DNA from: a virus | IMG/VR virus record: IMGVR_UViG_3300050821_014313 | Span: 4,677-68,676 of that record | DNA length: 64,000 nt | Direction: 5' to 3' (one strand) | Translations under genes and position numbers: made by a program | Shown here: positions 2,442 to 55,900 of the stretch, piece after piece | How positions within the stretch are numbered: position 1 is the stretch's first letter | Layout of the letters: the number at the start of each line of letters is the position of its first letter | Notes under the pieces: model-generated | Database searches by the model: none | What the model was told of the DNA's origin: nothing | The model's input: only the letters and a program-made list of their open reading frames with translations

Positions 2442-3725
2442 ATGGCGCAGGATACTACTGTTTCGGGTTTCGATGCGGCGTTGAAAGACGTTTACGCGGG
2501 CCCGATTCGCAATCAGCTGAACGAGAAAACTCGTTTGCTCGATTTGTTCACCAAAGGTGACATCGAGCAGTACGAATGGGAAGGCCGACAGGTTGTACTC
2601 GCTCTGCGCAAGGCGCGCAACGCGGGAGTTAAGGCTACGCCCGAATCCGGTGGACTGCCAGTCGCCGGCAAACAAGGTTACGCGAACCTCAAGATTCCAA
2701 TGAGGTTCATTCAGGGCAGAATTACCCTGACTGCGCAGGTTATGAAGGCCTCGCGGTCTGACAAGGGCAGCTTTGCTCGCGCGATGGACAGCGAACAAAA
2801 AGGTCTGGTCGACGACTTGGCGAGGCAGCGTAATCGTATGATTGCGAGCTTCGGTCAGGGCACGTTGGCTACGATCTCGGCCGGTGCAGCTTCGGCTACG
2901 CAAGGTCTGGCGAACCCCGGCGGAGTGACCGGAACTGTCAACGCGACCCGATTCACTAAGGTCGGAATGATGGTTGCGTTTACCGACCCGACCGGAGTTA
3001 CGATCCGTGGCGTGCAAACAATTCTGACGGTTGCTGAACCGAACATTACCCTGGACGCATCGGTCACCACGACCACTGCGGACTTGGTTTCGCTCGGTAC
3101 GAACTCGTTGGGTTCGAACGAAGGAAGCTTTGGCGTTGAGCCGATGGGGATTCTTGGGATTGTGGACAGCACGACTTACGTGTCTGTGCTCTTTTCTCTG
3201 GATCGCTCGCAGGCGGTCAATGCGTTCTTCCGCTCGACTGTGATGCCGGCGATCGGGACAGTTATTCCCGACGTCCTGCAGCGCGGGATTGACAACGCGG
3301 AAGAAGTTTCGGGCGAGGTCATCGATCAGTTTCTCTGCCACGTTAGCGTGCGGAGAGAGATCCTTAAGCTCACCGAAGCCGATCGACGCTACATGGGCAG
3401 CTCGTCTGCGCAGAACTTCGACGGCGGGACCAAGGCCGGCGCGTTCAAGTCTGAGTACACTTTCAACGATATCCCGGTGAAGGTTGATAAGGACTTCGCG
3501 TACGCGACCCTGGTTGGCGCGAACAAAGCGCATCTGTTCTGGATCCCTGAGGTCGAGGGTGAATGGGCAGACGACGACGGTACGGTGCTGTTCCGTGTGC
3601 CGAACCAAGACAATTACGAGGCTCGCTATCGCGTGTACGAGAACTTCTTCTCGGACAAAGGCGATGCGCACGTACGGTTCGACGGGATCACAGCAACTGT
3701 GACGTCTGGCGTTTACGCAGACTGA
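2442..3725 (+). CDS. major capsid protein
   Basis: 427 aa; strong AGGAG RBS; N-terminus DAALKDVYAGPIRNQLNE and GGLPVAG motifs typical of HK97-fold coat proteins; followed by a hairpin. Confidence 0.85.
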   Translation: MAQDTTVSGFDAALKDVYAGPIRNQLNEKTRLLDLFTKGDIEQYEWEGRQVVLALRKARNAGVKATPESGGLPVAGKQGYANLKIPMRFIQGRITLTAQVMKASRSDKGSFARAMDSEQKGLVDDLARQRNRMIASFGQGTLATISAGAASATQGLANPGGVTGTVNATRFTKVGMMVAFTDPTGVTIRGVQTILTVAEPNITLDASVTTTTADLVSLGTNSLGSNEGSFGVEPMGILGIVDSTTYVSVLFSLDRSQAVNAFFRSTVMPAIGTVIPDVLQRGIDNAEEVSGEVIDQFLCHVSVRREILKLTEADRRYMGSSSAQNFDGGTKAGAFKSEYTFNDIPVKVDKDFAYATLVGANKAHLFWIPEVEGEWADDDGTVLFRVPNQDNYEARYRVYENFFSDKGDAHVRFDGITATVTSGVYAD

Positions 3726-4419: not shown

Positions 4420-4681
4420 CAATGATCACATCAATAGTGGTTATTGGCGAAAGCAAGGCAGCACGCCCTCAACCTACTTTGAATCGTCTTGTCATGCCAA
4501 CACGGCTTCCTCACTATACTGATCATATTGGGGCTGCGCATGATCGGGCATGGCGTGCTGCGAGGATACGTTGGTTCGGAGGATACCTTCCGTCGCTTCG
4601 GTTGTGGAAGAAAGCTCGATTTCTTATTCGCGGCTTCGCAACCACGATCGCAGCTCTAAACGATGATTGGAGATTTAACTA

Positions 4682-6027: not shown

Positions 6028-8280
6028 ATGGGCGCAGCAGAGAAAGTATCCCGTTACAATCTTATAACTGGCGAGGACACTTACGCCTCCCAAACCTCGC
6101 AGAACCCTGCGACCGCACGTAAGCTCGCTTCGTGGATTCCCGCGGACGACGGCCAGCTCACTCGCGAGTTACTAGACGTAAAATTTAACACCACGCAGTT
6201 GTCTGGGCCAGTAGTTGGACTTTACGAGTACGACTGGAACGATCTGACTGGTACGGTCAACCGAACGTACTTCGCCGCTGCTCGCACCGACTTCAACCCC
6301 GGGACGCAAACCTGCAACTTATACTTCTTCACCACTGCTGGGCCGTTCGTCCAAGTCGCGTCGAACCAAACCACAATCAATCCTCTTGCTGGAGTCCCAG
6401 CGTGCGTGACCATCAACAATCTTTTCCACGTCACCGACGGCTCGTACTCGTACGTCTACGACGGCCCAAACAACGTCTGGTACATCGAGGGGTACTTCAC
6501 TACGACTGAGTTCGGTTCAATCGACACGCAGTCCGCAGGCAGCTTAACTCTTGCGATCGGACGTTACTACTGGATCGGCTACGCCGATCACACTCACAAT
6601 CATGAGTCGGATGCGATTACGTTCTTTCCTTTGGGCTCGGTGAACACTCTATTCACCGGTCCGATCACAAGTAAAGAAGTCAAAGTCTATCCGTTTACTG
6701 GACTAGCCTCGTGCTCGCCTGGATCAGGTATAGTTACTCGCTCGTCTTCGGGCGATAATCCAGGTCCGTCTGCGGCTCAAGCCACGCTACTCATTCAACC
6801 TGGATTTTACGATCCTAGTCGGATTCGTTTTGGTGTATGGATAAACGGGACACAGCTGACAGACAGTTTTGGAAATCCAGTCTACGTCGTAAACAATACT
6901 CCGGTGAATCTTGTTCTCAACGCGCATCCGACGCAGACGATTACAAACGGTCGCGCTGTGTTAGCTCCGTTGAAAACTACTCACTGGCATTTGTATGCTA
7001 GCGAGGTCGACGGCTCGCAGGTTGGACAACAGCTCGGAGAGATACCGTTAACGCAAAACTTATCCACAACTCCGTTTATCGATCAGGATCCGGGGATTAG
7101 TTCACCTTCTTCGTTGTTTCTTCCGATTTTTCGTCCAGTACGCAACGACGAGCCGCCGCCGAGCAAGATTCTCGAGGTGCACAAGTACCGTCAGTGGAGA
7201 GTACGTAAGAATCGACCGACGTTCTTCTCGTTCTCGGCGAACGAAGAAGTAACTTCGGGCGCGAATGGCTCTCCGCAAGAATCGTGGCCAGGGACCGATA
7301 CGATCTACGGAACGTTCTCGGACATCGTAAACGAGTACCCTTATCCTGATCAGTCGAACAACATCCGTGCGCTGATTAGTCACGCGGACGCGTTGTATAT
7401 CTTCTCGGAGAAACAAGGACTGCCGCTGTATGGAGAATCGCTAGACGACTTTGCGCTCTCGCAGGTCACTGCGTTCGCAGTTGGCATTGCTGGACAATTC
7501 GCCGGAACAAGCACCCCAAGCGGGCTCGCGTTTCTCTCGTACGACCGTATGCTCTTTCTCTACCCGACAAGCAATTATCCCTGGGCATACGTGCCAAAAG
7601 ACGTCAACGTCACCGACTCGTTAATCGACATCGGCAAGCCGCAACGTAAGTCTTGGGAGCAGATTCAGTTCGCCGATATGAATAAAACCTGGGTCCGTAA
7701 CTACCGTTTCGGCCGAAGAAACTGGTTGGTAGTCTCGGCAGTGCTCAACTCGACTTCTTGGCAGACTCTAGTCTACGACTTCAACACAAAAGGCTGGTTC
7801 CATCTCCAGCAAGGGTTTCAGTCGCTTGCGACGTTCGAGGTTAGCAATGGAGCGAAGATTCTGGTTGGCGGAGGCAGCGATGGGTTTGTTTACGTCGCTG
7901 ACGATATCTCGGGAACTTATGTTTCTACTGGCCCGCATCCGAATGCGGTATGGCGACCAGCGTTGATCGACTTTGGCGCGCCCGATGACAAGCATGTGTT
8001 TATGTACGTTGAGTTGGAGTTTTCGTCGCCGGCTCTTGAAGCCGACACTCGAATCAACTACTACCTCGATCCTCCCGACGTCGACAACCCCGGGACTCCA
8101 CGAACGCTCATCTTACAAAAAGTTAAGAACGTTGGGGCTAATCTTTATCGTGGCTGGGCGACTGGTGGGAACGCTTGTCATCGTTTGCTTCTCGAAGTCA
8201 ATACTGCCGCGAGCACGAACGTAGGATCGATCCGATCGGCTAAGCTCGTTGCTTGCAAGATCGTAGGGTTGGTGAACTAA
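6028..8280 (+). CDS. tail nozzle / DNA stabilization protein (P22 gp10 or T7 gp12-like)
   Basis: 750 aa, beta-propeller-like repeats, LVYDFNTKGW motif, follows the adaptor gene. Confidence 0.7.
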   Translation: MGAAEKVSRYNLITGEDTYASQTSQNPATARKLASWIPADDGQLTRELLDVKFNTTQLSGPVVGLYEYDWNDLTGTVNRTYFAAARTDFNPGTQTCNLYFFTTAGPFVQVASNQTTINPLAGVPACVTINNLFHVTDGSYSYVYDGPNNVWYIEGYFTTTEFGSIDTQSAGSLTLAIGRYYWIGYADHTHNHESDAITFFPLGSVNTLFTGPITSKEVKVYPFTGLASCSPGSGIVTRSSSGDNPGPSAAQATLLIQPGFYDPSRIRFGVWINGTQLTDSFGNPVYVVNNTPVNLVLNAHPTQTITNGRAVLAPLKTTHWHLYASEVDGSQVGQQLGEIPLTQNLSTTPFIDQDPGISSPSSLFLPIFRPVRNDEPPPSKILEVHKYRQWRVRKNRPTFFSFSANEEVTSGANGSPQESWPGTDTIYGTFSDIVNEYPYPDQSNNIRALISHADALYIFSEKQGLPLYGESLDDFALSQVTAFAVGIAGQFAGTSTPSGLAFLSYDRMLFLYPTSNYPWAYVPKDVNVTDSLIDIGKPQRKSWEQIQFADMNKTWVRNYRFGRRNWLVVSAVLNSTSWQTLVYDFNTKGWFHLQQGFQSLATFEVSNGAKILVGGGSDGFVYVADDISGTYVSTGPHPNAVWRPALIDFGAPDDKHVFMYVELEFSSPALEADTRINYYLDPPDVDNPGTPRTLILQKVKNVGANLYRGWATGGNACHRLLLEVNTAASTNVGSIRSAKLVACKIVGLVN

Positions 8281-24759: not shown

Positions 24760-24932
24760 TAGCTTAGCCTCTCCCAATGCGGCTCAGGCTCGTACCAGAA
24801 CCTCTCGAACCGGCTGCAGTTCGTGCAGTACCGCTCAGCCTTATGCTCGTCTCTAGCCCCAGGCTTGTGGTCGGGGTTCCCGCGGTACAGCCAGCTATGC
24901 AGTCCGAAGAAACACTTGACGTTGTCGATCAC
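24759..24932 (-). CDS. 57-aa Zn-binding peptide (C..GLH.W...C..C)
   Basis: Read by hand; GTGA and TAATG overlaps with both neighbours. Confidence 0.55.
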   Translation of the reverse strand: MIDNVKCFFGLHSWLYRGNPDHKPGARDEHKAERYCTNCSRFERFWYEPEPHWERLS

Positions 24933-25801
24933 AGCCGGCGACCTCTCGCGTGCAAGCTTACATCGATTCGACCGTCAGGCTGTAACGTAACCGCAGTCAG
25001 TCCTCGATTCCCCGGAGCCATACGTTTCTTCGCTGCGTACCCACCAAAGTACTTCACGTAGCTCGGCGAGATGATCACGACGGCATTCCTCTCGAACGCT
25101 AGTCCCGTCGCCTGATCGTGATCGATCTGATAAACCACGTCGGCCATCGGCTGATGCAAGTGTCCAGTCCAGAAAATATCGAAGTGCGCCCACGGCATAT
25201 CCTTCCTCGCGGCGTTTCGCTGCGCGCCTGGAGTCTGCGCCGCCCCGGACCCATGATGTGCGAGTAACCTAAAGTTCTGTCCTCGCCAGCGAATCGTTAC
25301 GAATGCGTAGTCAGGGTAGTACGGAACTCGAAGAAATTCTGCCAGCGTCTGCGCTCCGTCCATCCCGCTTACGTTGAACGTCCGGTCCTCGTGGTTGCCC
25401 GGGATCGCAAAAAGCATCTTATGCTGAATATCTGCTAAGTCTGTTGCCGCTGCGTACAACTGCTCGTTCGGAGTGCCTTTCTGAACCATCACGCTCGCCC
25501 CAGGACTGCTTGGGTTGGCGTTCTCCACCATATCGCCGCCGTTAAACCACAACACGTTCGGTTTCTTTTTTATCCATTCGTGATGCTTGTCGAAGAGTTC
25601 GCTGTCGTGCTCGCCCGAGCCCTTGTGCACATCGTACAGCGGCGCGAGCTCTATGCTATCCCACTCATCAGGAGCCGTCACGATCAGCTCGGGAAAATCG
25701 CTGTTGATTACCGGTTGGAGCTTCGCGATCCGCGGCGCAAACTGTTCCTGCAATCGTTGGATCTTGGACTTGAATTCCTCACTAATAAACGCTTGACGCA
25801 T
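24929..25801 (-). CDS. calcineurin-like metallophosphoesterase
   Basis: DVH, GDMVE, GNHE, HHG, GHLH motifs. Confidence 0.85.
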   Translation of the reverse strand: MRQAFISEEFKSKIQRLQEQFAPRIAKLQPVINSDFPELIVTAPDEWDSIELAPLYDVHKGSGEHDSELFDKHHEWIKKKPNVLWFNGGDMVENANPSSPGASVMVQKGTPNEQLYAAATDLADIQHKMLFAIPGNHEDRTFNVSGMDGAQTLAEFLRVPYYPDYAFVTIRWRGQNFRLLAHHGSGAAQTPGAQRNAARKDMPWAHFDIFWTGHLHQPMADVVYQIDHDQATGLAFERNAVVIISPSYVKYFGGYAAKKRMAPGNRGLTAVTLQPDGRIDVSLHARGRRL

Positions 25802-26052
25802 TAGCTTGCTCCTGTGATTCGTCTGACCCACGCTCTAGGAAACCACCGAAACGACTTCTCTAACCGCTGCAGTTCACGCCTTCGGTCGCTCGACCTGTAT
25901 CTTGCGTACGCAGGATTCTTCGAGCTCTTGCAACTCCCGCACCGACGTTGACGCGAGCTTACGTACCCACTGCGATTGCATCGACGGCCAGGGTGAAACT
26001 TGCAAGCGATGAACTCTCGGTCCCATTTTTCGCCTCGTTCTTCCTTCGTCAT
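25801..26052 (-). CDS. basic Cys-containing hypothetical protein
   Basis: TATAAT lies 9 nt upstream of the ATG; TAATG overlap with the phosphoesterase gene. Confidence 0.5.
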   Translation of the reverse strand: MTKEERGEKWDREFIACKFHPGRRCNRSGYVSSRQRRCGSCKSSKNPAYARYRSSDRRRELQRLEKSFRWFPRAWVRRITGAS

Positions 26053-26592: not shown

Positions 26593-26788
26593 CCGCTTCT
26601 CTCCTCTGCTTAATTATTGCTTCAATCTGATCTGTTACGTCAAACTTTTCGCCCGTAACTTCGACTAGATACCTCTCTGGCTGGTCAGGAGACTGCTCTG
26701 TTGCCTTCCACGCGCGTGTCACGTAGTACCGCGGAGAACTAGTCAAGTTACTCGTGAGAATCAGTGGATGCTTGCGTTTGCGCGTCAT
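26528..26788 (-). CDS. hypothetical protein
   Basis: AAGGAG RBS; ATGA overlap with the polymerase stop. Confidence 0.6.
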   Translation of the reverse strand: MTRKRKHPLILTSNLTSSPRYYVTRAWKATEQSPDQPERYLVEVTGEKFDVTDQIEAIIKQRREADDAQRRLHVSQGRSGKSRGRK

Positions 26789-28836
26789 GCTTTTTGCTCC
26801 TTTGTCTGGTCCCGCCAGTTCGGCCCGTAGCTACCTTCGGTCGGAATCACGAACCCAGGCATCTCGGGGGTCTCGACCTCCATATCGCCTTTCAACCACC
26901 CCATAGCTTCGGCCGGCGGAATCTCATTCCTCGTATAGCCAATCAACTCATCGTGTACCTGTAGCACCGGTCGCTGCGGTCGACCTTTCTTAAACTTCCG
27001 CCAGTTATTAAGCAACGCGATCTTGCTTATGTGTGCGATCGGCTGAGAACCCCAGACAGCCAGACCAGTCTTTATCCTGTCCTCGTCAGTCCCGTAACTA
27101 ATTAAGTAGTACCCGTGCGGAGGTCTTACGTATCCTTGCTCGATCTGCGCAGCGATCTTCTTTTGTAACTCACGTATCTTAGGGAACGTTCCATCAATAT
27201 ATCTACTAACAATCGCATTCGCCTTAGCCCTGTTGTCAAGGCTAGCTTTTCCAAACGCTCGACGCGCGAGGTTAGTTCCTGTAATCGTAACGATCTTTCC
27301 TCGGAACTTCCAGTCGGCGAATACAATTCGAGCTCCTGCGTCGATCTCAGATCGAATTTTCTTGGACCGCAACTCATAAGGCTCCTTAAGCTGCAGACCC
27401 TCAAAGTAGTCCGCGGCGTGCGTAACCGACTTGCTCGCGTCTCGCGCCGAGCCCAGCTTGATACTAAACTCGTCCGTTTCCTTCAATCCGATGTTTGTGA
27501 CCATCCAGCCATGCAGATCTCCCTTTGGCTGCTCGTACCCTGAGAGATATAGAAAATTACGATTCTCTGCGTTGCTATAATCGGCTCGAACGATGTAAAA
27601 ACCTTCTGGTGCTGCGATTGCTCGACGAATCTTCTTACCGACAAATTCTCCACTGAAACCTCTGCATGCGCAACCAAGCACCAAGCATCGATCGGCTGCG
27701 TGCTCACCTTTGCTGTGCCCGCATCCGCAAACCTTACGACTACGTCTCCGCTTGGCGACGTTTTGGAAGTTTGGGTCGGAACACATAAGTCGCGCACTGC
27801 TAGTATAGTAAGCGAGGCGAGGATGGACGAAGCCAAAGCTATCCAGATAACCCTCGATGTAACCGGTTTTTTCGCTCCGGTACTGCTCTTTGAACCACCT
27901 GTCTGGGCCATTGCCAAGCTCCTTATAGTCAAGCAAATCGACTAACTCATCTGGTGCGAATTCCTCTCCCCCAAGCTTCTCGATCATCGCACGAATAGTT
28001 TCTTCTTGGGCGTTCTCGAGCAACAGCTGCCTATCGCCTGGACCAACCAGACGCTTGGCTCCTTTGTCGTTGAAGTACGCGAGCACTTGCTGCGTGCTCT
28101 TAGGATTAAACGGCAACTCGCTCCCGGCTTCTTCTTTCTCCGCGAGAAACTCTGCTCGCAGCTTCTCTACGTACGGCCGGTCAATAAACACTCCGTATTC
28201 CCTGATCTCGGCTAGCGCCAGAGCAAGTTCGCGATGCATCGGATAGAGTTTCTCCAGTCCGCGAAACGCCATTGTTCGCTTGAGCTGTGGCAACGCGACC
28301 ACAGGCGCTGCAGCATCAAGCCCGTTATAACCGTAAGGATCGTGCTGAGGACAAGGTCCGCTACAGTACGGCTCGCGACAGTCTTTCCAATGAGCAAAGT
28401 CAGTATACAGACTAGCCATAGTCCAGAGATTATTAAACCCCCGACCTCTTTTCTCACCAGCGTCCTCCTCGAGCGCGGCTTTGCCTCCGCCCTTGCTCAA
28501 ATGCATGTTCACCAGCCAGTGCCGTATTATAGAATCCTCGATTTGCTCCAGCGGGATCTTTATCCCGTCTTTCTCCAAGACTTGTAAGTCAGCTCCAACG
28601 AAATTGTGTCCGCACCAAACTGTTCTCGGATATCTTCGAATAATCTCGAGAAGACTCGCACGTCCTGCGGAGTACGGCACCGAAATATGAGTTGTGCCGT
28701 CACTGAGTCCAAGGATGGTTGGTTTTTGGTCGTTGTCAAATTCGAGGTCGAGACCGAGCGGAGATTTTCCATAAAGCTTCCTTATGTCGTCCGGATTACG
28801 AGAGACCTTAGGCCACTCGGGAAGAAACTTATACAC
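26785..28836 (-). CDS. family A DNA polymerase with 3'-5' exonuclease domain
   Basis: Exo motifs LDLEFD, GHNF..AD, YNGLD; pol motifs NFQN, ADYSNAENR, KSVTHAADY, LQVHDEL. Confidence 0.93.
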   Translation of the reverse strand: MYKFLPEWPKVSRNPDDIRKLYGKSPLGLDLEFDNDQKPTILGLSDGTTHISVPYSAGRASLLEIIRRYPRTVWCGHNFVGADLQVLEKDGIKIPLEQIEDSIIRHWLVNMHLSKGGGKAALEEDAGEKRGRGFNNLWTMASLYTDFAHWKDCREPYCSGPCPQHDPYGYNGLDAAAPVVALPQLKRTMAFRGLEKLYPMHRELALALAEIREYGVFIDRPYVEKLRAEFLAEKEEAGSELPFNPKSTQQVLAYFNDKGAKRLVGPGDRQLLLENAQEETIRAMIEKLGGEEFAPDELVDLLDYKELGNGPDRWFKEQYRSEKTGYIEGYLDSFGFVHPRLAYYTSSARLMCSDPNFQNVAKRRRSRKVCGCGHSKGEHAADRCLVLGCACRGFSGEFVGKKIRRAIAAPEGFYIVRADYSNAENRNFLYLSGYEQPKGDLHGWMVTNIGLKETDEFSIKLGSARDASKSVTHAADYFEGLQLKEPYELRSKKIRSEIDAGARIVFADWKFRGKIVTITGTNLARRAFGKASLDNRAKANAIVSRYIDGTFPKIRELQKKIAAQIEQGYVRPPHGYYLISYGTDEDRIKTGLAVWGSQPIAHISKIALLNNWRKFKKGRPQRPVLQVHDELIGYTRNEIPPAEAMGWLKGDMEVETPEMPGFVIPTEGSYGPNWRDQTKEQKA

Positions 28837-31331: not shown

Positions 31332-32816
31332 CTATTCTTCGATATAAATAAGCTCGTTCATCGCACGAGTTTTTGCGACGTACTTCAAGTTTCCTTCTTG
31401 ATCCGGCACCCCGGGCTTCGACCACTTCCCAATCAACCCGTACTTAAGAATGAAGACTCGGTTCCACTCCTTACCCTTAGCTTTATGAATAGTGCTGAGT
31501 ACGATTTTGTTTGGATTCGCGTCGTCATCGAAAAGATTCAAGATTCGCGCAAGCAACGCGTCGACCGACTGCGATCGCATCTGACGAGTAAACACTCGAA
31601 TAGTATCGACGCGATCTTGTAGACTGTTGACCTTCCATGACTTGCCTTCGCGTAGCAACCGAGACCGCTCAGACTCAAGATGTGCTGCGAGCTTTGACTC
31701 GAGCTCAAGCACCGTCGCTGCGTGCATCTTCTTGACTAGTGAGATCAGACCCTTGCCGATGTCGCGTCCGAGCACTCTGCACGGAATGTCTTTGGCGATT
31801 AACTTGAACGCGTGCTCGACTAACGGAGCGTTTAACCGGCAGAGAATAACGTCCTCTTTCGCGTAATCCTCAGGCTCGTAGCTGTAGCTGTGCTCGACTC
31901 GTCCGTCAGGCGCGCCGGCTCGTGGCTGCAACCACTCAACTTGCTCGTTCGCGTCCTCAACAATCAGCCGTGCGCACCGATAGCTCACGCTGAGCGGCAG
32001 CTCCTCGGCGGCAAACTCCTGCTTAAGCAACTCCATCGAGTCTGTGCCAGCTCCGCGGAAACCATAAATCGCTTGGTTAGGATCCCCAATCGCAATCAGC
32101 CGGCCGTCCTTAACCAACGATCGTCTGATGATCTCTCTCTGAATCTCGTTTACGTCCTGAGCCTCGTCGACAAACAAATACTCGTACCGTTTGAACGGAG
32201 CGTCCGCAACCACCGGCATGTATAGCTGATCGTTGAAATCGATCACTTGACCGCTCATTGCGATAGACTCGACGAGCACGCGCCTTGCGGTCGCTATCGC
32301 TCGGTGCCTAGCTACCTTCCCAAAATCGAGATCGAACTCCTCGGCTAGGTCGAGCCAGTTGTAGTCGCTGTCCTCGACGAGACCTTTCAGGTGCGCGGTC
32401 TCAGCCGCCCTCGGCACGAGCCCAACTCCTTTCGCGAGAGCTACGAGCTTCGTCACGTCCTCACGAAACTCGCTATTGTAGCTGTCGGGCTGCGCACGAA
32501 CCAACGCGCTCACCTTAAACTTATCGAGCTTGGCGTATTGTCCGTTATGCATGTACCACGCAGAGTTGCCCAGGCTGTTGAAGGTCTTCGCTTTGTCCTT
32601 CCCGAGCTTACCCTCGAGCACCAGCTGTATGTCCTTGTTGAACGCCAGGAACTTCGCGGAGCTGTGCTTCATCACGCGCTTGAACCCTACGACTCCGGTC
32701 GTAGTCTTCCCGGCTCCTGCTCCAGCCTTAACAATCAAGCTTCGGTCGTCGTTCTCAAGGAAGTCGAATATTGCTTCCTGCTCGGGCGAGAAAACTCTTT
32801 CGTCTACTGCGTTCAT
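31332..32816 (-). CDS. UvrD/Rep-like superfamily 1 helicase
   Basis: AGAGAGKTT, LAFN, VDEAQD, GDPNQAIYGFRGA, SYRC, STIHKAKGKEW, YVAKTRA motifs. Confidence 0.93.
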   Translation of the reverse strand: MNAVDERVFSPEQEAIFDFLENDDRSLIVKAGAGAGKTTTGVVGFKRVMKHSSAKFLAFNKDIQLVLEGKLGKDKAKTFNSLGNSAWYMHNGQYAKLDKFKVSALVRAQPDSYNSEFREDVTKLVALAKGVGLVPRAAETAHLKGLVEDSDYNWLDLAEEFDLDFGKVARHRAIATARRVLVESIAMSGQVIDFNDQLYMPVVADAPFKRYEYLFVDEAQDVNEIQREIIRRSLVKDGRLIAIGDPNQAIYGFRGAGTDSMELLKQEFAAEELPLSVSYRCARLIVEDANEQVEWLQPRAGAPDGRVEHSYSYEPEDYAKEDVILCRLNAPLVEHAFKLIAKDIPCRVLGRDIGKGLISLVKKMHAATVLELESKLAAHLESERSRLLREGKSWKVNSLQDRVDTIRVFTRQMRSQSVDALLARILNLFDDDANPNKIVLSTIHKAKGKEWNRVFILKYGLIGKWSKPGVPDQEGNLKYVAKTRAMNELIYIEE

Positions 32817-32989
32817 CGTACCCTCGATCGAATAAGAAAAATCAGTGCGTCGGCTTGCGCCTGCGTAAGATTCACTCCGGCGAGCTGCCGCCATATTGAG
32901 CTTACCCAAGGAGAGATTTTCTCCCCTGTCTCCCTAAATACTCCACTCCGCCTAAGCATCTCGTCTAGCGAGTTTCTAGTCTTCTTCAT
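32813..32989 (-). CDS. 58-aa hypothetical protein
   Basis: Read by hand (MKKTRNSLDE...); ATGA overlap with the helicase start; preceded by AACCAG. Confidence 0.5.
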   Translation of the reverse strand: MKKTRNSLDEMLRRSGVFRETGEKISPWVSSIWRQLAGVNLTQAQADALIFLIRSRVR

Positions 32990-34114: not shown

Positions 34115-34375
34115 AGGTCGATAGTTCGTTCGTGCGTATTCTGCAAGAGGTCTGCCGGCTTTGCCTCGCTGCCAAGGCTGCTGCGGCGTGCCGTCCTTAC
34201 GCTTACGTCTGTTGCGATTCGCGATTCTCCGCTTTTCCCCGCAGTCCGTACAGACTCTCTTAAACGGCGAGTCGCCTCGGTCGCGTGCGCACCAAATGCA
34301 CTTGCCTGCCCGCCAGACCCGGATCTGCCAGATAGTCTGCCGGGAATACTTACGCTTTTGTTTCTTCTCGCTCAC
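34112..34375 (-). CDS. basic zinc-finger protein
   Basis: CIWC...CTDC; Arg/Lys-rich. Confidence 0.6.
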   Translation of the reverse strand: MSEKKQKRKYSRQTIWQIRVWRAGKCIWCARDRGDSPFKRVCTDCGEKRRIANRNRRKRKDGTPQQPWQRGKAGRPLAEYARTNYRP

Positions 34376-35436
34376 GGTTGTTTAGGCAGACTGCTCTTCG
34401 CCGCCTTGATCCTCTCCCAAACCGCCCTGAGCTCCATCGCTTCCTCGAGCTTGACCACCTTCTTATCAACCGGCAGAAGCTCGAGAGCTAGTGGCAGCTT
34501 ACGCTTGGCAAAGATCTCACGAATGAACGTCTCGGGCTTACCTTTCTGATTCAGCTTTGAGTACTGCAAGCTGCTCCGCGACGTGATCATCTTCCACTTC
34601 CGCGGGTCGAGATAAAACACGTACTCCATCTCGGCGGTGAGCAAGTTGCTGATGCCGCTGCTTAGCGCAGGAACTATCGTCTCGCGGTTCTCGGCCCCGT
34701 ACGCAGTGACTTTACTCAGTCCAATAAATATCGTATGCATCGGCTTGCGCTTGAGCGAGTTAAGAATCTCGCGAAACGCGACATTGCTGTTGCCGTAGAT
34801 CTTGCGGCCGTCGCGGAGCTCCTTGCCTTCGTCGTCCGTCCGGTTGTCGTCGACAATCAACTCCGCGCCTTCCGTTGTGTCGTCGATGATCAGCGTACGC
34901 TCGGCGCTCTTCTCCCAGGCCAGCAGATTCGCTCGCTCGGTCTCGTTCAGTCCTGGCGCATCGTAAACCCACTTCGCCGCCGCCTCGGGATTCTGCAACG
35001 CCCACAGCAGTCCATCCGCACTGTCAACTTGCACAAACGGGTAACCTTCGTCGCGCACCGGCATCAGCTGTTCTTTACCACGCGTAAGCACGAAGAAGGT
35101 ATTCTTCGGTCCACTGAACGCCGACGCAGTAGTAGTCTTCCTTGTGTCCGTCTCTCCGTACAGCAACAAATGCATGAACCCGGACTCGATCTCCCGGGAG
35201 CTGCCTCTTTTGACTCCCGCTGGCGGCGCAACTCTACTGCCTACGCTCGCGTTGACCGTAGCAGCTACTGTTGGCTTCGGCGCTTGCAACGGCAGCTGTT
35301 TAGGCTGAACTACGACGGCAGACTTTACTCCGACCGTCGCAGCGGGCGAGACAGCGCCAGCTAACGGCGTACCCGCCGTCGTCATCTCTGTCTTCGCTTC
35401 TCCGACTACTGGACCCGAATCGGTCAAGCTATTCAT
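34372..35436 (-). CDS. Sak4-like / AAA_24 P-loop ATPase (recombinase-like)
   Basis: LLLYGETDTRKTT (variant Walker A), LIIDDTTE Walker B, next to a RecB/Cas4-like nuclease. Confidence 0.7.
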   Translation of the reverse strand: MNSLTDSGPVVGEAKTEMTTAGTPLAGAVSPAATVGVKSAVVVQPKQLPLQAPKPTVAATVNASVGSRVAPPAGVKRGSSREIESGFMHLLLYGETDTRKTTTASAFSGPKNTFFVLTRGKEQLMPVRDEGYPFVQVDSADGLLWALQNPEAAAKWVYDAPGLNETERANLLAWEKSAERTLIIDDTTEGAELIVDDNRTDDEGKELRDGRKIYGNSNVAFREILNSLKRKPMHTIFIGLSKVTAYGAENRETIVPALSSGISNLLTAEMEYVFYLDPRKWKMITSRSSLQYSKLNQKGKPETFIREIFAKRKLPLALELLPVDKKVVKLEEAMELRAVWERIKAAKSSLPKQP

Positions 35437-35776: not shown

Positions 35777-36069
35777 CGCAGACCCTCAGCAAGCAGTGCT
35801 TCGCTCCCGCCGGCACGCTCTAACGCTCGTACTGCTATTGCTGCTATCTTTACGATCTGTTTTAGACTCGGCCGGTTGTCTCCCGCGACATTCCAATCGA
35901 CCATCGCTTTGTCGACGTAGATCTGGAGCAGTACAAGATGGCTCGTTACGTCTTTGTCGCGATCCGCGCGAGTTCGGCCGCTCGATAATTCCTCGTTTGG
36001 GTTGTACGTGCGATCCTGATACGCACGCTCGATATTTACAATGCCTATCGCTTGTTCTCTCGTCATCAT
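35773..36069 (-). CDS. MazG-like helical protein (possibly inactive)
   Basis: ERAYQD...KIAAIAVRALE pattern; the acidic catalytic cluster is not evident. Confidence 0.5.
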   Translation of the reverse strand: MMTREQAIGIVNIERAYQDRTYNPNEELSSGRTRADRDKDVTSHLVLLQIYVDKAMVDWNVAGDNRPSLKQIVKIAAIAVRALERAGGSEALLAEGLR

Positions 36070-37049
36070 TTTGTCTTCTCCTGTTGCTCTTCCTTGATCA
36101 TCCGGTAGAACTCGCTATAACCAGCATGAGCTACTGTGCCGACGTGCATTCCTGCGACCGAGTTAGACTCTTCGTTGTCTTTCTCAGACATAGATCCGGA
36201 GACGATTCTGTGCAGTTCTAAACACTGACTCGCCATGTCGTAGCTGCTCGCGGAGAGCACGACTAGATTAGGATTGTCGAACCGATCTGGATCGATATGC
36301 GGGACCGCAAGGACCGTCGCTGGATCACTTTCGTCGAACAGCAACTGCTTGTCCTCGCCCTCGAGCACCGTTGGCGGCTCATGCTTCGAGCAAAACTTAT
36401 CGAGCATGCTGCATGTTCGGTTGAACGGAAAGCATTGCTTCCCCGGCAACTGAAAAGGCACTATCCCGGCTTTTCTCGCGCACCTTATTTGCTCAGCTTT
36501 GGCAAGGAATCCGTTCCTAATACTTTGGAGCGCGTTGCTGTCGAAGCTGTAGACTCCGGTGTCTTCGCTTGGCCAGAACCTAACGGGGTTGCTTTTGACG
36601 GCGGCTCGGACACGAACACGAGAATTCGCGGTTGGCTCGTTCGCAAAACTGAAATGCTCACCACTCCGGTCGTAGAAATCAGCTCCCGCAATTGCTGCAG
36701 CATACAATCCCACTTGGGATCCAGTGGAAATCTCTCGTAACCAGACTTCTTCGTTCCACCAACTACTATCCCTTCCGCGGGAATCTTTTCTCGGTTCTTT
36801 GACGTTTTTCCACTCATTCCCAAAAACTCCCTTCGCGTCGCGCATGATTACATCCTGCACGCCGATCGCAAGCGTGTTCTGGTCAAGCTCAAGCACAAAC
36901 CCACACTCGACTGCCACAATCTCGTACTGACTGTCTTCGTCGTAGAACTCCTTCGCCCATTCGTCGACTAAGTTTGCCCCGGTCTCAAGCGCCAGCGGCG
37001 GCAGACCCGTCGCCATAATCGCTGCGTTGATTCTGTCAGGATCGATCAT
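36066..37049 (-). CDS. PD-(D/E)XK RecB/Cas4-like exonuclease, circularly permuted
   Basis: AVE, GVQD, NEWK, QVGLY motifs; three-Cys cluster followed by LSASS...C...GTVAH. Confidence 0.8.
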   Translation of the reverse strand: MIDPDRINAAIMATGLPPLALETGANLVDEWAKEFYDEDSQYEIVAVECGFVLELDQNTLAIGVQDVIMRDAKGVFGNEWKNVKEPRKDSRGRDSSWWNEEVWLREISTGSQVGLYAAAIAGADFYDRSGEHFSFANEPTANSRVRVRAAVKSNPVRFWPSEDTGVYSFDSNALQSIRNGFLAKAEQIRCARKAGIVPFQLPGKQCFPFNRTCSMLDKFCSKHEPPTVLEGEDKQLLFDESDPATVLAVPHIDPDRFDNPNLVVLSASSYDMASQCLELHRIVSGSMSEKDNEESNSVAGMHVGTVAHAGYSEFYRMIKEEQQEKTK

Positions 37050-39830: not shown

Positions 39831-41636
39831 TCATGGCAGGTAAAACTTTCCCCACTTAGCCGCGTCGCACGACGTCGGTCCTTGTGGTTGAGTTCCCGGG
39901 CCAATCTCCGCACCAAACCCACCATCAAGCAGTCCTGCTAAGTTGCTGCTTGGCTGTGGACCCATCACGCTCAACGCAACCCCGCCGTGACTAGCTGGAC
40001 ACCCCTGACCCAACCCAAACATTGTTTCGAGCTGCATCGGACAATCCTCGAACCCCTCGAAATGCCCGTTCTCATGCGCAGCCAATCCCTTGTAATTCGT
40101 CGCAGGGGTAAGCGTCTTTCGCATATACGTATCCACGTGATAGATACTTCCGTAGATCCACGGGAAGTCTCGGTTGAAAAACATCACCGAGTGCGTTCCC
40201 GTGCATCCAGCTGTCGGCTCGCATCCAGTCACGAATACATACGGTTGTTGTGGCCGTACTGGCGGACCAATCGTACTTACGCATCCGTAGGCTTTTCCGT
40301 CAACTGCCTCCCACGACTGAAAACCCGCACAGATGTTTTGCTCTGCAACCGATCCGTTCGCCCAATAACCCGAGTCAATATACACCGTGACTATCCCTGG
40401 CTCCCAATACTTCTGATTGAACGGCGGATAGTACGGGCACGGGCCGGTTGGATCCAACATTGAAACCACGGTTGCAATCGTCCCGGCGGCTGCGCAGGTA
40501 ACCTGAGCTGCTGTGCTGTGTGTACCGCACTTAGTGCTTGGTGCTCCTGGCGCAAACTGCACATCACACGCCGACATGAAATCCTGTACCAACCCCGTAT
40601 CGAGCGTGGCCGGGAGGTAGCTTTGTTGGGAGTTTTTGTGTTCGGTTGGACAAGAATCCACATCGAACGTTGCAACCGCCAGCGCTTGCAAGTACGTTTG
40701 GTCGGGCGCACACGGCGGTGGCAAGGTCGATCCTGCAAACGTCGCTTGTGAGTTCACAAACGGTTCCATGAAGTTAAAATGAAACGCGTTGCCGCTTGCT
40801 GACTGCACCGCAAACAACTCAGCCTTGCTCACCGCGAGCGTAGTCGCAGTGTCCTGCACCTGCACCCAACAAGTGGTGCACATTGTTGCGTCGCTAGTTG
40901 ATCCTGCCCAATAACTCACCGCATGCGCGTTGCTGACAATCGCGACCATGGTGTCGGTTGCGACGATCTCTTGAGCTGCTCCGCCCGGGCTGTTGCATCC
41001 TGCCGGCACGAATCCAGCCGAGAACGCACAGTACTCCGGAGTGAACCCACCGGTCACTGCGTTCGCCAGCAACCAAACTCCGAACCGGCTAACCACTGCC
41101 AGCTGTCCTGTGTTGATCCCTTGATTCGCCAGCAAGTACAACCCTGTGTCGGTAAACAACGTCGACCCAGAGTAAGCGCACAGCAGATGATAATCTCCGT
41201 TGTGGATCCCGCAGATAGACCCGTCCAACTGACTCGCCGCGATGCTACGAAAAGTCGTCGTTGTTCCGAACGGATTCGTCCAGCTAGTCCCATCGTACAT
41301 CGAGATCACTCCCGACGCGCCCAACACATAAACCTGCGTGAAACTCACCACTGCAACTTCCGCTGCTCCGCTCGACAACTCCACCCAGGTGTTGGTCTCC
41401 CAATGCCAAAGATTAGCCGAGGTATCGATTGCCCACGCATCGCCGTCGCCGCCGTAAGCATGCCGCTTAAAGTTCGACCCAATGCCAGTACGAGGAATCG
41501 CGTTCAAACACCCATGCGTCTTGCAATACTGATGCTGCGCTTGATAGTTGAAAGTGGTTACAGCCGAATACGTGTCTGCGCCAAACATCGGCAGAGACAG
41601 CAGACAGAAAACGATCAGTTTACACCAACTCTTCAT
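39831..41636 (-). CDS. secreted tectonin-like beta-propeller fused to a metzincin-type Zn protease domain
   Basis: Signal peptide MKSWCKLIVFCLLSLPMFG; repeats AWAIDTSANLWHW and VYVLGASGVISMYDGTSW; HENGHFEGFED plus SVMGP Met-turn. Confidence 0.7.
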   Translation of the reverse strand: MKSWCKLIVFCLLSLPMFGADTYSAVTTFNYQAQHQYCKTHGCLNAIPRTGIGSNFKRHAYGGDGDAWAIDTSANLWHWETNTWVELSSGAAEVAVVSFTQVYVLGASGVISMYDGTSWTNPFGTTTTFRSIAASQLDGSICGIHNGDYHLLCAYSGSTLFTDTGLYLLANQGINTGQLAVVSRFGVWLLANAVTGGFTPEYCAFSAGFVPAGCNSPGGAAQEIVATDTMVAIVSNAHAVSYWAGSTSDATMCTTCWVQVQDTATTLAVSKAELFAVQSASGNAFHFNFMEPFVNSQATFAGSTLPPPCAPDQTYLQALAVATFDVDSCPTEHKNSQQSYLPATLDTGLVQDFMSACDVQFAPGAPSTKCGTHSTAAQVTCAAAGTIATVVSMLDPTGPCPYYPPFNQKYWEPGIVTVYIDSGYWANGSVAEQNICAGFQSWEAVDGKAYGCVSTIGPPVRPQQPYVFVTGCEPTAGCTGTHSVMFFNRDFPWIYGSIYHVDTYMRKTLTPATNYKGLAAHENGHFEGFEDCPMQLETMFGLGQGCPASHGGVALSVMGPQPSSNLAGLLDGGFGAEIGPGTQPQGPTSCDAAKWGKFYLP

Positions 41637-41730
41637 TCGCTTCTTCTCCAGAGGATAGATTTTCCTGATACCGATTGGATGCAGCGGCAGCGAGCAAGGA
41701 TGCAGTGAATTCTGATATAATTGCTGCACG

Positions 41731-42666
41731 ATGATCCCCGAAAACCTAGAAGATTCGGCCTCTGCTTATGTCTTCCCGTCCTTCGAATACCTCATCGACG
41801 AGCTGCTGCCGACGCAGGAGATTCATCTTATTGGCGGACCAACCGGCGCAGGCAAAACTACTTGGCTGCTGCGGCTGCTCGACCAGTGGCGCAGAGGCGA
41901 ACGAATCTTTGGCTTCGCCTCGCATCCGGCGGAGTTCCTCTACGTCTCGCTTGACCGCTCGCGCAACGGCATGCTCCGGATCCTCCAACGCATGCGGCTA
42001 GATCCACGCAACTTCAACCTGATCTTTCCCTCCCTCGCCGACCGCAAGTTAGGTATTCCTTTGTATCTGCAAAAGCTCGTTGCAGCTTACCCTGCCGCGC
42101 GTTTGATTGTTGTCGAGGGCTTCCAAACGGGCGTCGAAAACATCAACGACCAAAAAGAGGTAACTAGCTATCTCGCCAACGTCCAAACGCTGTGCGTTCG
42201 CACAAACATCACGGTCCTGGGCGTCGTGCACACCTCGAAAGCCAAGCAAAACGCTAAGTACGAGAACCCTCGCGAGCGTATTGCTGGCTGCGGTCAGTGG
42301 GGAGGATGGAGCGAGACCGTAATCATGGTCGAGCCGCAAACCGACCCAAGCGGAGCCGAAGCCGACCTACGCAACCTCCAGGTGCTGCCGCGCAACGGCA
42401 AGCATATTCACTTCGTGCTGGAGTTCCGCGACGGACTGCTAGTCGAGCGAACCAAAGCCCTCACTAACGAACAAAAAATCATCGAGTACTGCCTGACTCA
42501 CCCTGAGCCGTTCTACCACCGAGATACTTTCCGTGCGGTCACAGGCTTGCCAGATTCTTCTCTCACTCGCTTACTTAATACTCTTATAGACTTAGGCCGT
42601 CTCTCGCGCATCGAGGCCGGTAATGGAACCTACCGTTTCCACGCTCCCAAGCAACCTAGTAACTAA
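41731..42666 (+). CDS. RepA-like (AAA_25) SF4-type helicase with C-terminal winged helix
   Basis: LIDELLP..IHLIGGPTGAGKTT, LYVSLD, LIVVE, VVHTSK motifs; HTH-like C-terminus; own TGATATAAT promoter. Confidence 0.8.
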   Translation: MIPENLEDSASAYVFPSFEYLIDELLPTQEIHLIGGPTGAGKTTWLLRLLDQWRRGERIFGFASHPAEFLYVSLDRSRNGMLRILQRMRLDPRNFNLIFPSLADRKLGIPLYLQKLVAAYPAARLIVVEGFQTGVENINDQKEVTSYLANVQTLCVRTNITVLGVVHTSKAKQNAKYENPRERIAGCGQWGGWSETVIMVEPQTDPSGAEADLRNLQVLPRNGKHIHFVLEFRDGLLVERTKALTNEQKIIEYCLTHPEPFYHRDTFRAVTGLPDSSLTRLLNTLIDLGRLSRIEAGNGTYRFHAPKQPSN

Positions 42667-49812: not shown

Positions 49813-50768
49813 TCGGTCGTAATCCTAAACTTCTTTAACCACGCTTTATCGGTTGCGCTGAACTGCGGCTCGCTAGTCGCGCTAGCTTTTGGCCGATCGA
49901 ACCATGCATATGCGCGCAAGTACGCTCTAGCTCGCTCGCATTGCTTGCACGGCAATGGCAGCTCATGCAACTCGCATTGCTGCTGCCACTGCTCGTGCTC
50001 GACAATGTCGTCTTGTAGACTCATGTCGTCGTTGCTTCTACCGGCAGTCGTCGAAAGCTTTTTCGGCTTCGGCGATCTCGGATGCGGTCGCTTGCTTGGA
50101 CAGGTTCACGCCTGTCGTCGGTGAATTAGCTGCAGCTGCCCTGGCTTTGCCGGCTGCGTAGTTTTCTTTGCGAGCCTTGTCGACCCCGACGTCGTTCGGA
50201 CTGACCCCGACGCTCTTCGCAAGCTCTTCGATAAAAATCAAGCTGACTTCCGTGACCAGTTGCGGAAACAACTCCTTGGCCACTGCGAAGTTGAGCGCCC
50301 CGACTGCGGCTAACGAACTCAGCTGAACCTTAACGATTCGCTGCGCTGCATTGAGAATGCCCGTTCCGATCAAATTGACTGCTTTGTCGCTTGCTGCTCC
50401 TACTGCTCCGGCTGCTCCTGCTATTCCTGCTGTACTCATGTTTTCCTGCTCCTTCATGGTTGAATTAACTACATCTACTCTTGCAGTGCTTGCAATTCTG
50501 CAAGAATATTTTCGCGTGCTTCTGCGTTTAGCTCGGCGCTGCCAATCCTACAGTCTCTGCACAATGTTCGTGCGATCCAGCTTGGGCTAAAAGCAGGCTC
50601 TAGACGTGCTCCCGCGCCTCGTGCCCCGCACATCTCACAGTGCTTAAGCAACTGCAGTGATTCCAGCGGTCCTAGTTTCTTGGTCTCGTTCTTAGTCTCG
50701 TTCATCTGGTTTAGTCCTTCCTGTATTGCCTTCATCCTTGCGGGACTACTGCGTCGCCACTCAAGGCC

Positions 50769-52118: not shown

Positions 52119-53015
52119 TTACTCGACTACCTTGCCCTCAAGCATCTTGGGCTCGATGCCGACTCCCATCGTCTTGAGTTCTGCCATCGCTTCGGCTCGC
52201 GTCCACAACGCTCGATTAAGCTTCACGTCTTGACCGATGCCCGTAACCTCTCTTGTGCTCATCCTGCGTCCGCGAACGTAGCCGTGCTCTGCCGTGTTCG
52301 AGCTCGCTGTCCGTCCTCGCAGTCCACCCTTGATCACGTTTTCTTGAATCCTGTTAAACACACTCCAAAGATCGTCGCGGTTGTCTTGCATTCTCCGGAC
52401 GTTTAGCAACTGCGTAGGTTGAATTGCCGTCGCGATCTTGCCCTCGCTCGACTCAAACCGCAGTCGGTGCGCGGACGTCGCGAACGCAACCTGCTCGTCG
52501 TAGCTGAGCTGAATGCTTTTCCACTGCTTGATCGTTTCGAGCACGGTGCCCGACTGCTCCGCGATGCGCAAACTAGCCTGGATAACCTCCGCCACCACAT
52601 CGCCTCTGTGCATCACGCTGATACTCGCGAGAGTCGAGTCCGCAACCAGCAACCCGTTCGCGCACGCAAACCTAAACACCCCGGCGTTCAGCTTGTATCG
52701 GGTCGTTCCATCGTGCCCGTTCACCATTACGATCTCAGGGACGAGTTCGCCAACCACTGCCGCCCGCGCCATATCTTCCTCGCGCCGAAACCGAATCATA
52801 TGCTTGGTGAAGTCTCTACGTCCTTCATCTCGGCAGCTGCTTTGCGTCGCTGCGTACGCCTCGAACCCTGCCTTTTGCATTCCCTCGATAACCGTCGAAG
52901 TCGGTATGTAGCAGTAACGTTCGCTTCGGCTCTCGTGCGCCGCTGTAGCTGTTGCGCTCGGCGCTAGCTCCGCGATCTCTTCCATGCTCAACTTATGCTT
53001 GCTTGCGTTCATCAT
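52119..53015 (-). CDS. DUF932 family protein
   Basis: HESRSERYCYIPT, TKHMIRFRR, NGHDG, FRFACANGL, LWSVFNRIQENVIKGG, LNRALW motifs. Confidence 0.88.
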   Translation of the reverse strand: MMNASKHKLSMEEIAELAPSATATAAHESRSERYCYIPTSTVIEGMQKAGFEAYAATQSSCRDEGRRDFTKHMIRFRREEDMARAAVVGELVPEIVMVNGHDGTTRYKLNAGVFRFACANGLLVADSTLASISVMHRGDVVAEVIQASLRIAEQSGTVLETIKQWKSIQLSYDEQVAFATSAHRLRFESSEGKIATAIQPTQLLNVRRMQDNRDDLWSVFNRIQENVIKGGLRGRTASSNTAEHGYVRGRRMSTREVTGIGQDVKLNRALWTRAEAMAELKTMGVGIEPKMLEGKVVE

Positions 53016-53217
53016 CTGGTTACTTCTCCTTGATTGGAATAACTCGCGCTGCGCGAGTCTCGGTGTCGAATTCGATCGTGATGTACTCATCGTACTCAAT
53101 GAACTTATCGAGTACCTCGCGAACCTCGGGCGGATCGTACACGCTTTCGGCTCGGCTGTAGTCTGGGTCTTTCATCGTGACTCTAAACTTCGCCATCTAG
53201 TTTTTCTCTCCTAACTG

Positions 53218-55150: not shown

Positions 55151-55900
55151 TCATGCGGCCTTTCCAATCTGTATGAGTTTTTGATGCGGTTGTACAAACC
55201 CGGATTCATCTTTTTTCGCCCTGCCCTTCGCGCGCAACCCGACAACCACTCCCTTGCGGTCCGCAAACCTCAGATCGCTTTCGTCTCCATCGATAACGCT
55301 GTAGCCATTCCACTGCTTAGGCAATTCATGCCCGCGCTTCACAGCAAACACCACTGCAACGTTAATCTTGTGCGCGAGTGCGTCTAACGCGTCGCTTAGG
55401 TTTTCCTCGCTTAAGCTAAACGTTAGATCGTAGTTGCTCCTTGTGCGCTTCCACGGCTCAGGAATCTTTGTGTAGTCGTAAAACTGTACCTCTGGAAACC
55501 GCTTCGCTAGCTCTAAAGCGAGCTTAGGTTGGTCGGACGTCCCATTGAGTCGTACGCATGGGGTTAGGTCAAGCTTTTTGGCTTTGCGCACGAGAGCCGC
55601 TATTTCGCGCGCGAGTGTATCGCAAAACGATTTGTAGTCACTGACGTACGCGCGCGTGCGAGCGTTCCTCGCAAGATTAATCTTGGGGAAAATTCCTGCT
55701 CTGCCCGCAGTGTATAGACACGCTTTTTTGCATCCGGTTGTTGCGAACGGGCAGAGATTGACTTCGCTGCCGTTTGAGTGCCGTAATCCGCTTTCGTTCG
55801 CTGGCGACATGTAGCAGATTCCCGTGAGGAATCCTTTGCTTTCGCCTTTGACTGTCTTAGCATCGTTCGAGACGGACAGTAGCTTTGGTTGTCTGGTCAT
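55151..55900 (-). CDS. GP88 family protein (Fe-S / radical-SAM-like)
   Basis: NLCPFATTGCKKACLY.AGR, VRLNGTSD, FYDYTK, DGDESDLRF, VVGLRAKG motifs. Confidence 0.8.
   Translation of the reverse strand: MTRQPKLLSVSNDAKTVKGESKGFLTGICYMSPANESGLRHSNGSEVNLCPFATTGCKKACLYTAGRAGIFPKINLARNARTRAYVSDYKSFCDTLAREIAALVRKAKKLDLTPCVRLNGTSDQPKLALELAKRFPEVQFYDYTKIPEPWKRTRSNYDLTFSLSEENLSDALDALAHKINVAVVFAVKRGHELPKQWNGYSVIDGDESDLRFADRKGVVVGLRAKGRAKKDESGFVQPHQKLIQIGKAA

Follow-up and report, generated by a model that had tools for sequence, protein, structure and literature searches.

A probable circular permutation in a Cas4/AddB-like iron-sulfur nuclease encoded by an uncultured phage

The Nuclease Gene and Its Relatives

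The window analyzed here comprises 64,000 nucleotides (positions 4677–68676) of the complete 68,676-bp virus record IMGVR_UViG_3300050821_014313, in which direct terminal repeats are present, and covers most of a 68.7-kb phage genome, composed of a plus-strand structural block and a long minus-strand early block. An open reading frame (ORF) on the minus strand, here named P0001 (Table 1), is a single frame with no stops and quite probably codes for a circularly permuted RecB-family (PDDEXK_1) nuclease of the iron-sulfur (Fe-S) "iron-staple" kind (Cas4/AddB/Dna2-like), as a first-pass annotation made from the letters of the sequence had proposed. In AddB, Cas4, Dna2 and Exo5 the Fe-S cluster is commonly interpreted as a staple, linking a cysteine residue located before the nuclease core to three cysteine residues located after it.

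A word-indexed search retrieved 23 full-length relatives of P0001, at 39–67% identity, and HMMER, run exhaustively against 1.84 billion cluster representatives, gave 98 matches at E ≤ 1e-3 (P0001 and one spurious protein among them) and 80 at E ≤ 1e-10. The spurious protein (P0119, 1356 amino acid residues), which was the weakest match, is an unrelated Big_5/Por_Secre_tail surface protein and was dropped. Two alignments were used: A1, with P0001 and its 23 full-length relatives (24 sequences), and A4, with 92 of the 119 stored proteins, at 22–68% identity to the query (fragments of less than about 280 residues, the longer P0034, P0059 and P0087, as well as P0090 and P0119, were omitted). No relative of P0001 was identified by tblastn in 50,697 deposited phages, where P0118 likewise had no match at E ≤ 1, and none was detected in 185,579 species genomes scanned with the A1 pattern. 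The family in which the permuted order is kept belongs to uncultured phages, probably from soil.

Table 1. Features of the window and parts of P0001, in window positions; residue numbers are those of P0001.
Feature	Positions	Strand	Basis or remark
Major head protein	2442-3725	+	phrog_14242
Mre11-like phosphoesterase	24929-25831	-	Pfam/PHROGs
Family A DNA polymerase (PolA)	26785-28836	-	Pfam/PHROGs
UDG-like protein, 355 aa	30079-31146	-	23.2 bits vs Pfam cut-off 24.3; no PHROG match
UvrD-type helicase	31332..32909	-	Pfam and PHROGs
Sak4-like AAA_24 ATPase, putative single-strand annealing/recombination partner	34372..35436	-	PF13479 E 1.4e-7; phrog_124 E 8.4e-9
ORF, 98 aa	35773..36069	-	start overlaps nuclease stop by 4 bases
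Nuclease P0001, 327 aa + stop, probably circularly permuted PDDEXK_1/RecB-family	36066..37049	-	ORF and relatives
Residues 1-40, new N-terminus	36930..37049	-	helix 4-12, long helix 18-39 into strand 1
Residues 41-194, nuclease core	36468..36929	-	RecB motifs, conservation, structure matches
Motif I, E48	36906-36908	-	conserved in A1/A4
Motif II, D66	36852-36854	-	conserved in A1/A4
Motif III, E79-W-K81	36807-36815	-	conserved in A1/A4
Q112xxxY116	36702-36716	-	conserved in A1/A4
Residues 206-220, C206-x6-C213-x6-C220, predicted Fe-S ligands 2-4	36390..36434	-	loop and short helix 214-218
Residues 221-262, linker between canonical C- and N-termini	36264..36389	-	variable length and sequence
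Residues 263-326, putative relocated "N-terminal" element	36072..36263	-	profile matches in relatives, conservation, model
C276, predicted Fe-S ligand 1	36222-36224	-	break between helices 267-275 and 277-285
G304xxxH308	36126-36140	-	in helix 295-326
ORF, 632 aa, faint Tectonin match	39831-41729	-	abuts AAA_25 ATPase
AAA_25/primase-helicase-like ATPase	41731-42666	+	inside otherwise minus-strand early block
DUF932 protein	52119-53099	-	E 1.8e-41; far end of early block
GP88 family protein	55151-55900	-	E 6.3e-42; far end of early block

Order and Conservation of the Motifs

All the catalytic motifs of the RecB family, motif I (E), motif II (D), motif III ((D/E)xK) and QhxxY, are present in P0001 and in the canonical order: AVE (E48), GVQD (D66), NEWK (E79/K81) and QVGLY (Q112/Y116). 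These are followed by a three-cysteine string, QCFPFNRTCSMLDKFC (C206, C213 and C220), and, some 45 residues past it, by a C-terminal segment, LSASSYDMASQCLELH...VGTVAHAGYSEFY (residues 265–315, window positions 36105–36257), that reads S-x-S...C276...G304TVAH308. Every string quoted in the first-pass annotation was recovered in this frame, including the C-terminal segment, which had been placed at about 36105–36266, at the extreme C-terminus, and which lies near the C-terminus. Its statement that all four cysteine residues are located downstream of the catalytic core also agrees with the numbering, since they fall within residues 206–276, instead of the one N-terminal plus three C-terminal layout of iron-staple nucleases. 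The spacing of the three-cysteine motif is CX6CX6C, and not CX2CX5C, and the second gap widens to 10 residues in some relatives (A1 columns ~250–270).

Conservation extends to both parts of the protein. In A1 the catalytic and three-cysteine residues (E48, D66, E79, K81, Q112, Y116, C206, C213 and C220) are invariant, and so are those of the C-terminal segment (S266, S268, Y270, C276, G304 and H308). In the more diverse A4, D66, K81, Q112, C213, C220, C276, G304 and H308 are invariant, and E48, E79, Y116, C206 and S266 each occur in no fewer than 90% of the sequences; the family thus has the four conserved cysteine residues typical of the iron staple. The new N-terminus (residues 1–40), where E22, L27, W31 and D39 are invariant in A1, contains no cysteine, SxS or GxxxH, and corresponds, in the relatives, to positions ~88–110 of the PF12705 profile.

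The record is a metagenome-derived virus contig and, in principle, a mis-assembly, a frameshift or the fusion of two genes could mimic a permutation. We found no support for such an artefact, which we regard as exceedingly improbable. A scan with regular expressions recovered the order ExK < QxxxY < three-Cys < SxS..C < GxxxH in 24/24 proteins (P0001 and its 23 relatives), so that homologues sharing the order, which the first-pass annotation had suggested searching for, do exist, and the same order is present in the 92-sequence alignment, whose members come from many sources. As for the reads, near-identical sequences of the window were detected in several soil-metagenome runs, and in three of them half or more of the sampled words are present. 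In run X1, which may be the source sample of the record, a single contig bridges the region (35900–37038) with one base difference from the window, and neither joints nor loose ends were observed in four sequencing runs. Run X2, with a 47-base gap at 36309–36355, and runs X4 to X8, with only small shares, were not used as evidence. The permuted order is not an assembly artefact: besides the read data, it is kept in diverged homologues from several sources, which is a stronger reason to discount the artefact than the reads themselves.

Swapped Profile Matches

The Pfam profile PF12705 (PDDEXK_1) matches all 11 relatives of one set and all 13 family members of another, with scores above the gathering score of 22 bits in 11/11 and 11/13, respectively (P0099, with 18.6 bits, and P0087, with 19.9 bits, are below). 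In 10/11 and 10/13 of these proteins the match is split into two separate stretches, and the best of them corresponds either to protein residues ~20–220, aligned with profile positions ~85–247, or to protein residues ~234–320, aligned with profile positions 2–53 (the latter in P0004, P0006, P0101, P0114 and P0099). The alignments of the relatives reach profile positions 246–247 at the three-cysteine motif, and the beginning of the profile is matched by the C-terminus.

The same arrangement was observed in the DNA of related phages. In a six-frame search the PF12705 cut-off was exceeded in all four related phage records and, in three of them, the core piece is located upstream, and a piece matching profile positions 2–51, 2–56 or 2–62 is located downstream in the same frame, with E values for the relocated piece of 3.2e-7, 1.7e-6 and 1.0e-5 across the three records. 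In G002 (plus strand), positions 7307–7801 match profile 97–225 and positions 8030–8200 match profile 2–56; in G004 (minus strand), positions 51330–50980 match profile 90–189 and positions 50625–50464 match profile 2–51; G001 follows the same pattern, and G003 has the core piece only. Two independent PHROG profiles behave likewise in the relatives (best E values down to 7e-10): the C-terminus aligns with positions 4–63 of phrog_1218 and 85–138 of phrog_69, and the N-terminal part with positions 93–187 and 166–333, respectively.

Canonical AddB-type and stand-alone nucleases from five bacterial genomes, taken as controls, gave instead one collinear PF12705 match, from position 1 or 2 to positions 215–247, and in their translations the S-x-S...C...G..FH element comes first, followed by the core and, in the three Fe-S-bearing ones, by CX2CX5C. 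The first-pass annotation had anticipated two profile hits in swapped order, and this holds for the relatives with PF12705, phrog_1218 and phrog_69, but not for P0001 itself, which has no PF12705 match. A single collinear alignment covering the protein, the result that would have contradicted the permutation, was obtained for the canonical controls and not for the phage family. We consider that the circular permutation of a Cas4/AddB-like nuclease is supported by these sequence profiles and, indirectly, by structure.

For the tail of P0001 we also performed a language-model search with residues 255–327 alone, in which 28 of the 30 nearest named clusters of the ESM Atlas are PDDEXK_1 (top score 0.95, a score that is uncalibrated for parts of proteins); this is the only direct support for P0001's own tail. 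Sequence searches of the PDB gave no match with A3, a profile of the C-terminal segment, and two chance-level matches (E > 1) with A1, and no NCBIfam match was found for P0001 or six relatives.

Predicted Structure

The AlphaFold model obtained with the 92 sequences has a mean pLDDT of 93.5 and a pTM of 0.91; no residue scores under 50, and the cysteine-bearing blocks are at 93–96. The chain is therefore predicted to fold, tail included, as a single compact domain. The modeled relocated element consists of a strand (263–265), the S266-x-S268-x-Y270 motif, C276 and a long helix (295–326) with G304xxxH308. C276 is placed exactly at the break of helices 267–275 and 277–285, resembling the description of C801 in AddB, and C206, C213 and C220 are on a loop around the short helix 214–218.

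The model has a RecB-like fold. Nearly all its Foldseek matches in the PDB are RecB-fold nucleases (MGME1, ACE1/Cas4, AdnAB, Exo5, AddAB, SSO0001 and RecBCD), with probabilities of 0.9–1.0 and TM-scores (TM) of at most 0.39 in sequential alignment. The best PDB match (E 6e-4) is the 738-residue chain 9kqh_A, a DinG from Finegoldia magna. In BFVD, only two proteins, both from uncultured phages, align over the full length (TM 0.62/0.71 and 0.59/0.56), and both carry the generic UniProt name "PD-(D/E)XK nuclease superfamily"; the other matches have TM of at most 0.42, normalized by the query, and 0.54, normalized by the target. Similarly, two viral clusters of the ESM Atlas align over query residues 1–325 (TM 0.69), whereas canonical clusters stop just past the three-cysteine motif: a Cas4 cluster (165 residues) aligns with residues 17–221 only (TM of 0.78 in its row), a RecB-family cluster (201 residues) with residues 1–224 only, and a helicase-nuclease cluster with residues 1–223 only. 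These sequential searches are consistent with a shared fold and a different connectivity, in which the modeled tail would occupy the canonical N-terminal position.

The same alignments could be read in another way, in which the core has merely lost its N-terminal element and the tail is the vestige of a truncated second tandem copy, or an independent extension. Canonical structures do align with residues ~1–224 only, and the tail looks extra in sequential alignments; helix 18–39 is already ahead of strand 1; and the linker (221–262) varies among the relatives and is the part modeled with the least confidence (mean pLDDT of 66 in block 231–240). Against this, C276, G304 and H308 are invariant in the 92 sequences, despite identities as low as 22% (22–68%), which is unexpected for a vestige, there is no other conserved cysteine that could be the fourth one, and the blocks of the tail are modeled within the same compact domain with very high confidence (pLDDT of 96 for 261–280, and 96–98 for 301–320). 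A vestige thus seems unlikely, and a permuted element, that is part of the domain, is favored.

A related question is whether the tail acts on its own chain, since in a domain-swapped oligomer it would complete the active and cluster sites of the neighboring protomer. There is some precedent: T7 endonuclease I, a member of the superfamily, swaps domains, as stated in PMC3424549, and Cas4 SSO0001 forms decamers, according to PMC4176176. Moreover, the long and flexible linker 221–262 would permit a swap. The monomer model, however, predicts the tail in cis with high confidence, and we consider a swapped arrangement improbable and a permutation within one chain the better description.

Several results weigh against a circularly permuted Fe-S nuclease. 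P0001 has no Pfam match at E ≤ 10, whether searched as a whole, as two halves or in six frames of the genome, and its match to phrog_1218 has an E value of only 0.24, so the link between P0001 and PF12705 runs through its relatives, this phrog_1218 match, and the structure and language-model searches. Comparison of A1 with A2, a thin and insertion-rich canonical alignment of five sequences, was not significant by profile-profile alignment with hhalign (probability 0.3%); A3 could be aligned with the canonical N-terminal segment, with the S, C and G..H positions matched, at P = 0.053 and a probability of 1%. Neither was counted as evidence. The CX6CX6C spacing, compared with CX2CX5C, suggests that the geometry of the cluster loop, and perhaps the type of cluster, may differ. 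On the structural side, an earlier AlphaFold model, built with 24 sequences, had a pLDDT of 77.6, with both cysteine segments below 50, and was superseded by the 92-sequence model. Insertions, and not connectivity, could in part account for the low TM to canonical structures. In one Atlas row, 159 positions of the 165-residue Cas4 cluster are aligned within query residues 17–221, and helix 18–39 may accordingly fill part of the space of the canonical N-terminal helices.

Proposed Architecture

In the canonical order, the S-x-S...Cys1...GxxxH element precedes the core (motifs I–III and QxxxY), which is followed by the three cysteine residues. In P0001 the proposed order is core, three cysteine residues, a linker of ~45 residues, Cys1 element and GxxxH helix. 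The Cys1 element having moved to the C-terminus, the four predicted ligands are therefore within 71 contiguous residues after the core. E48, D66, E79/K81 and Q112/Y116 would form a standard RecB-type metal-dependent active site, and C206, C213, C220 and C276 are predicted to bind one Fe-S cluster from a contiguous segment (206–276), whereas the canonical ligands come from both ends of the domain. The long C-terminal helix with the invariant G304xxxH308 would pack back onto the core. The histidine of GxxxH is equivalent to His956 of RecB, which coordinates the metal in the active site; should this also apply to P0001, the relocated piece would bear a catalytic residue as well.

Such an arrangement probably arose by the classic route, a tandem duplication after which the N-terminal element of the first copy and the core of the second were lost. 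Apart from P0119, the exhaustive search returned no relative longer than 418 residues that could represent a duplication intermediate, with no separate search made for intermediates, and, when the longer members were scanned with regular expressions, the SxS..C element was not detected a second time at the N-terminus.

Comparison with Known Nucleases

A close parallel is AddB of the Bacillus subtilis AddAB complex. Like P0001, it has motifs I–III, QxxxY and four conserved cysteine residues, and E48, D66, E79/K81 and Q112/Y116 map in order onto E915, D944, D961/K963 and Q981/Y985 of AddB, as numbered in PMC3321194. The S-x-S...C...G..H element is present in the AddB domains fetched from Bacillus and Staphylococcus, and in both proteins the first cysteine is at a two-helix turn, while a loop and a helix carry the remaining three (AddB structure in PMC3321194, and our model). 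The ligands in the AddAB structure are C801, C1121, C1124 and C1130 (PMC3321194), with C801 located ~300 residues upstream of the others and N-terminal to the core, whereas C276 of P0001 is 56 residues downstream of C220. The spacing also differs (CX6CX6C vs CX2CX5C), and P0001 is a stand-alone phage protein of 327 residues, whereas the AddB domain is part of a helicase-nuclease.

Cas4 (DUF83; SSO0001, structure 4ic1, and Pcal_0546) shares with P0001 the RecB-like fold, the four cysteine residues and the character of a small stand-alone nuclease, and structural matches include 4ic1, Cas4-Cas1-Cas2 complexes and ACE1, besides the Atlas cluster over residues 17–221. In Cas4 one cysteine is N-terminal and three are C-terminal: Cys64 vs Cys200/203/209 in Pcal_0546 and Cys32 vs Cys188/191/197 in SSO0001, residue numbers given in PMC4176176 that also fit CX2CX5C; the layout is documented as well in PMC3378879. 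P0001 does not qualify as a Cas4, however: the Cas4 profile PF01930 was not among the matches listed for it or for any of 24 family proteins scanned (E ≤ 10 or E ≤ 1), and it has no CRISPR context, its neighbors being phage replication and recombination genes.

Permutation itself has a precedent in the superfamily. In Hef (1j22) it is the C-terminal region that supplies the first helix of the core, a circular permutation reported in PMC3424549. Placed side by side by description, the Hef/XPF-type domain and P0001 are both circularly permuted within the PD-(D/E)XK superfamily, but Hef belongs to a different clade, without an Fe-S cluster, and the piece moved in P0001 carries a cluster ligand, which makes the four ligands contiguous. 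The relatives also match the phage "exonuclease" families phrog_1218 and phrog_69, phage-encoded and in the DNA metabolism category, although these matches fall in two swapped pieces and P0001 itself reaches only the E value given above. Finally, lambda Exo and RecE offer a functional analogy, as PD-(D/E)XK exonucleases encoded near a single-strand annealing protein, and lambda exonuclease (6m9k) is among the weak structural matches; the neighbor of P0001 is, however, a Sak4-like AAA_24 ATPase and not Red-beta or RecT. Lambda Exo is not known to carry an Fe-S cluster.

Full-text searches of the literature gave no description of a permuted Cas4, AddB or PDDEXK_1 nuclease, although supplementary alignments might hold an earlier record. 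The text of a Cas4 phylogenomics paper contains no occurrence of "permut", and the "circular permutation" in PMC10212523 refers to the HD domain of Cas10. We are inclined to think that the P0001 family is the first natural circular permutation recognized in the Fe-S "iron-staple" clade, in which the staple becomes a contiguous cassette of ~70 residues and the G..H helix is provided by the new C-terminus. Next to Hef/XPF, it would provide a second and independent example of a permuted PD-(D/E)XK nuclease, and a family with four contiguous ligands would imply that the fold tolerates another connectivity. This would not be a new kind of system, but a clean and testable case for the "iron staple" role: deletions or mutations of the cassette and of the G..H helix could leave the core intact, providing a natural construct to study cluster function and, if the permutation is real, a natural experiment that separates the roles proposed for the cluster in holding the fold and in DNA binding or sensing. 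It would also define an uncatalogued family of phage nucleases, covered piecemeal by collinear profile models. Such genes are under-annotated in phage metagenomes because PF12705-like models cover fragments of them or miss them, as in the case of P0001, and a dedicated profile model would mend this gap.

Gene Neighborhood and Possible Role

The overlap between the nuclease gene and the 98-residue ORF that follows it (Table 1) suggests translational coupling. This ORF could not be assigned to any Pfam or PHROG family, nor does it resemble the 104-residue ORF at the same position in locus L004. It is followed by ~340 bases without a called gene and then by the gene of the Sak4-like ATPase. In each of the three related loci tested, an orthologue of this ATPase is encoded downstream of the permuted nuclease (39% identity in L002, 34% in L003 and 32% in L004), so that the linkage is conserved; a scan of viral contigs with the Sak4-like protein gave no match. 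In L002 an orthologue of the UvrD-type helicase, with 49% identity, also follows.

From this context we infer the polarity of the nuclease and its partnership with the Sak4-like ATPase: P0001 is most likely a Mg-dependent exonuclease that resects DNA ends for this ATPase in the recombination/replication module of a ~69-kb soil phage, with end resection most likely serving Sak4-dependent recombination or recombination-dependent replication.

The nuclease gene belongs to the minus-strand early block, as do those of the Mre11-like phosphoesterase, the family A DNA polymerase, the UDG-like protein, the UvrD-type helicase and the Sak4-like ATPase (Table 1), and the UDG-like gene is close to the polymerase gene. 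In the related loci, we observed upstream of the permuted nuclease genes coding for a DHH/DHHA1 phosphoesterase (L004, 3997–4824, plus strand) and for a DUF7448 protein (L003, 5098–5571, plus strand).

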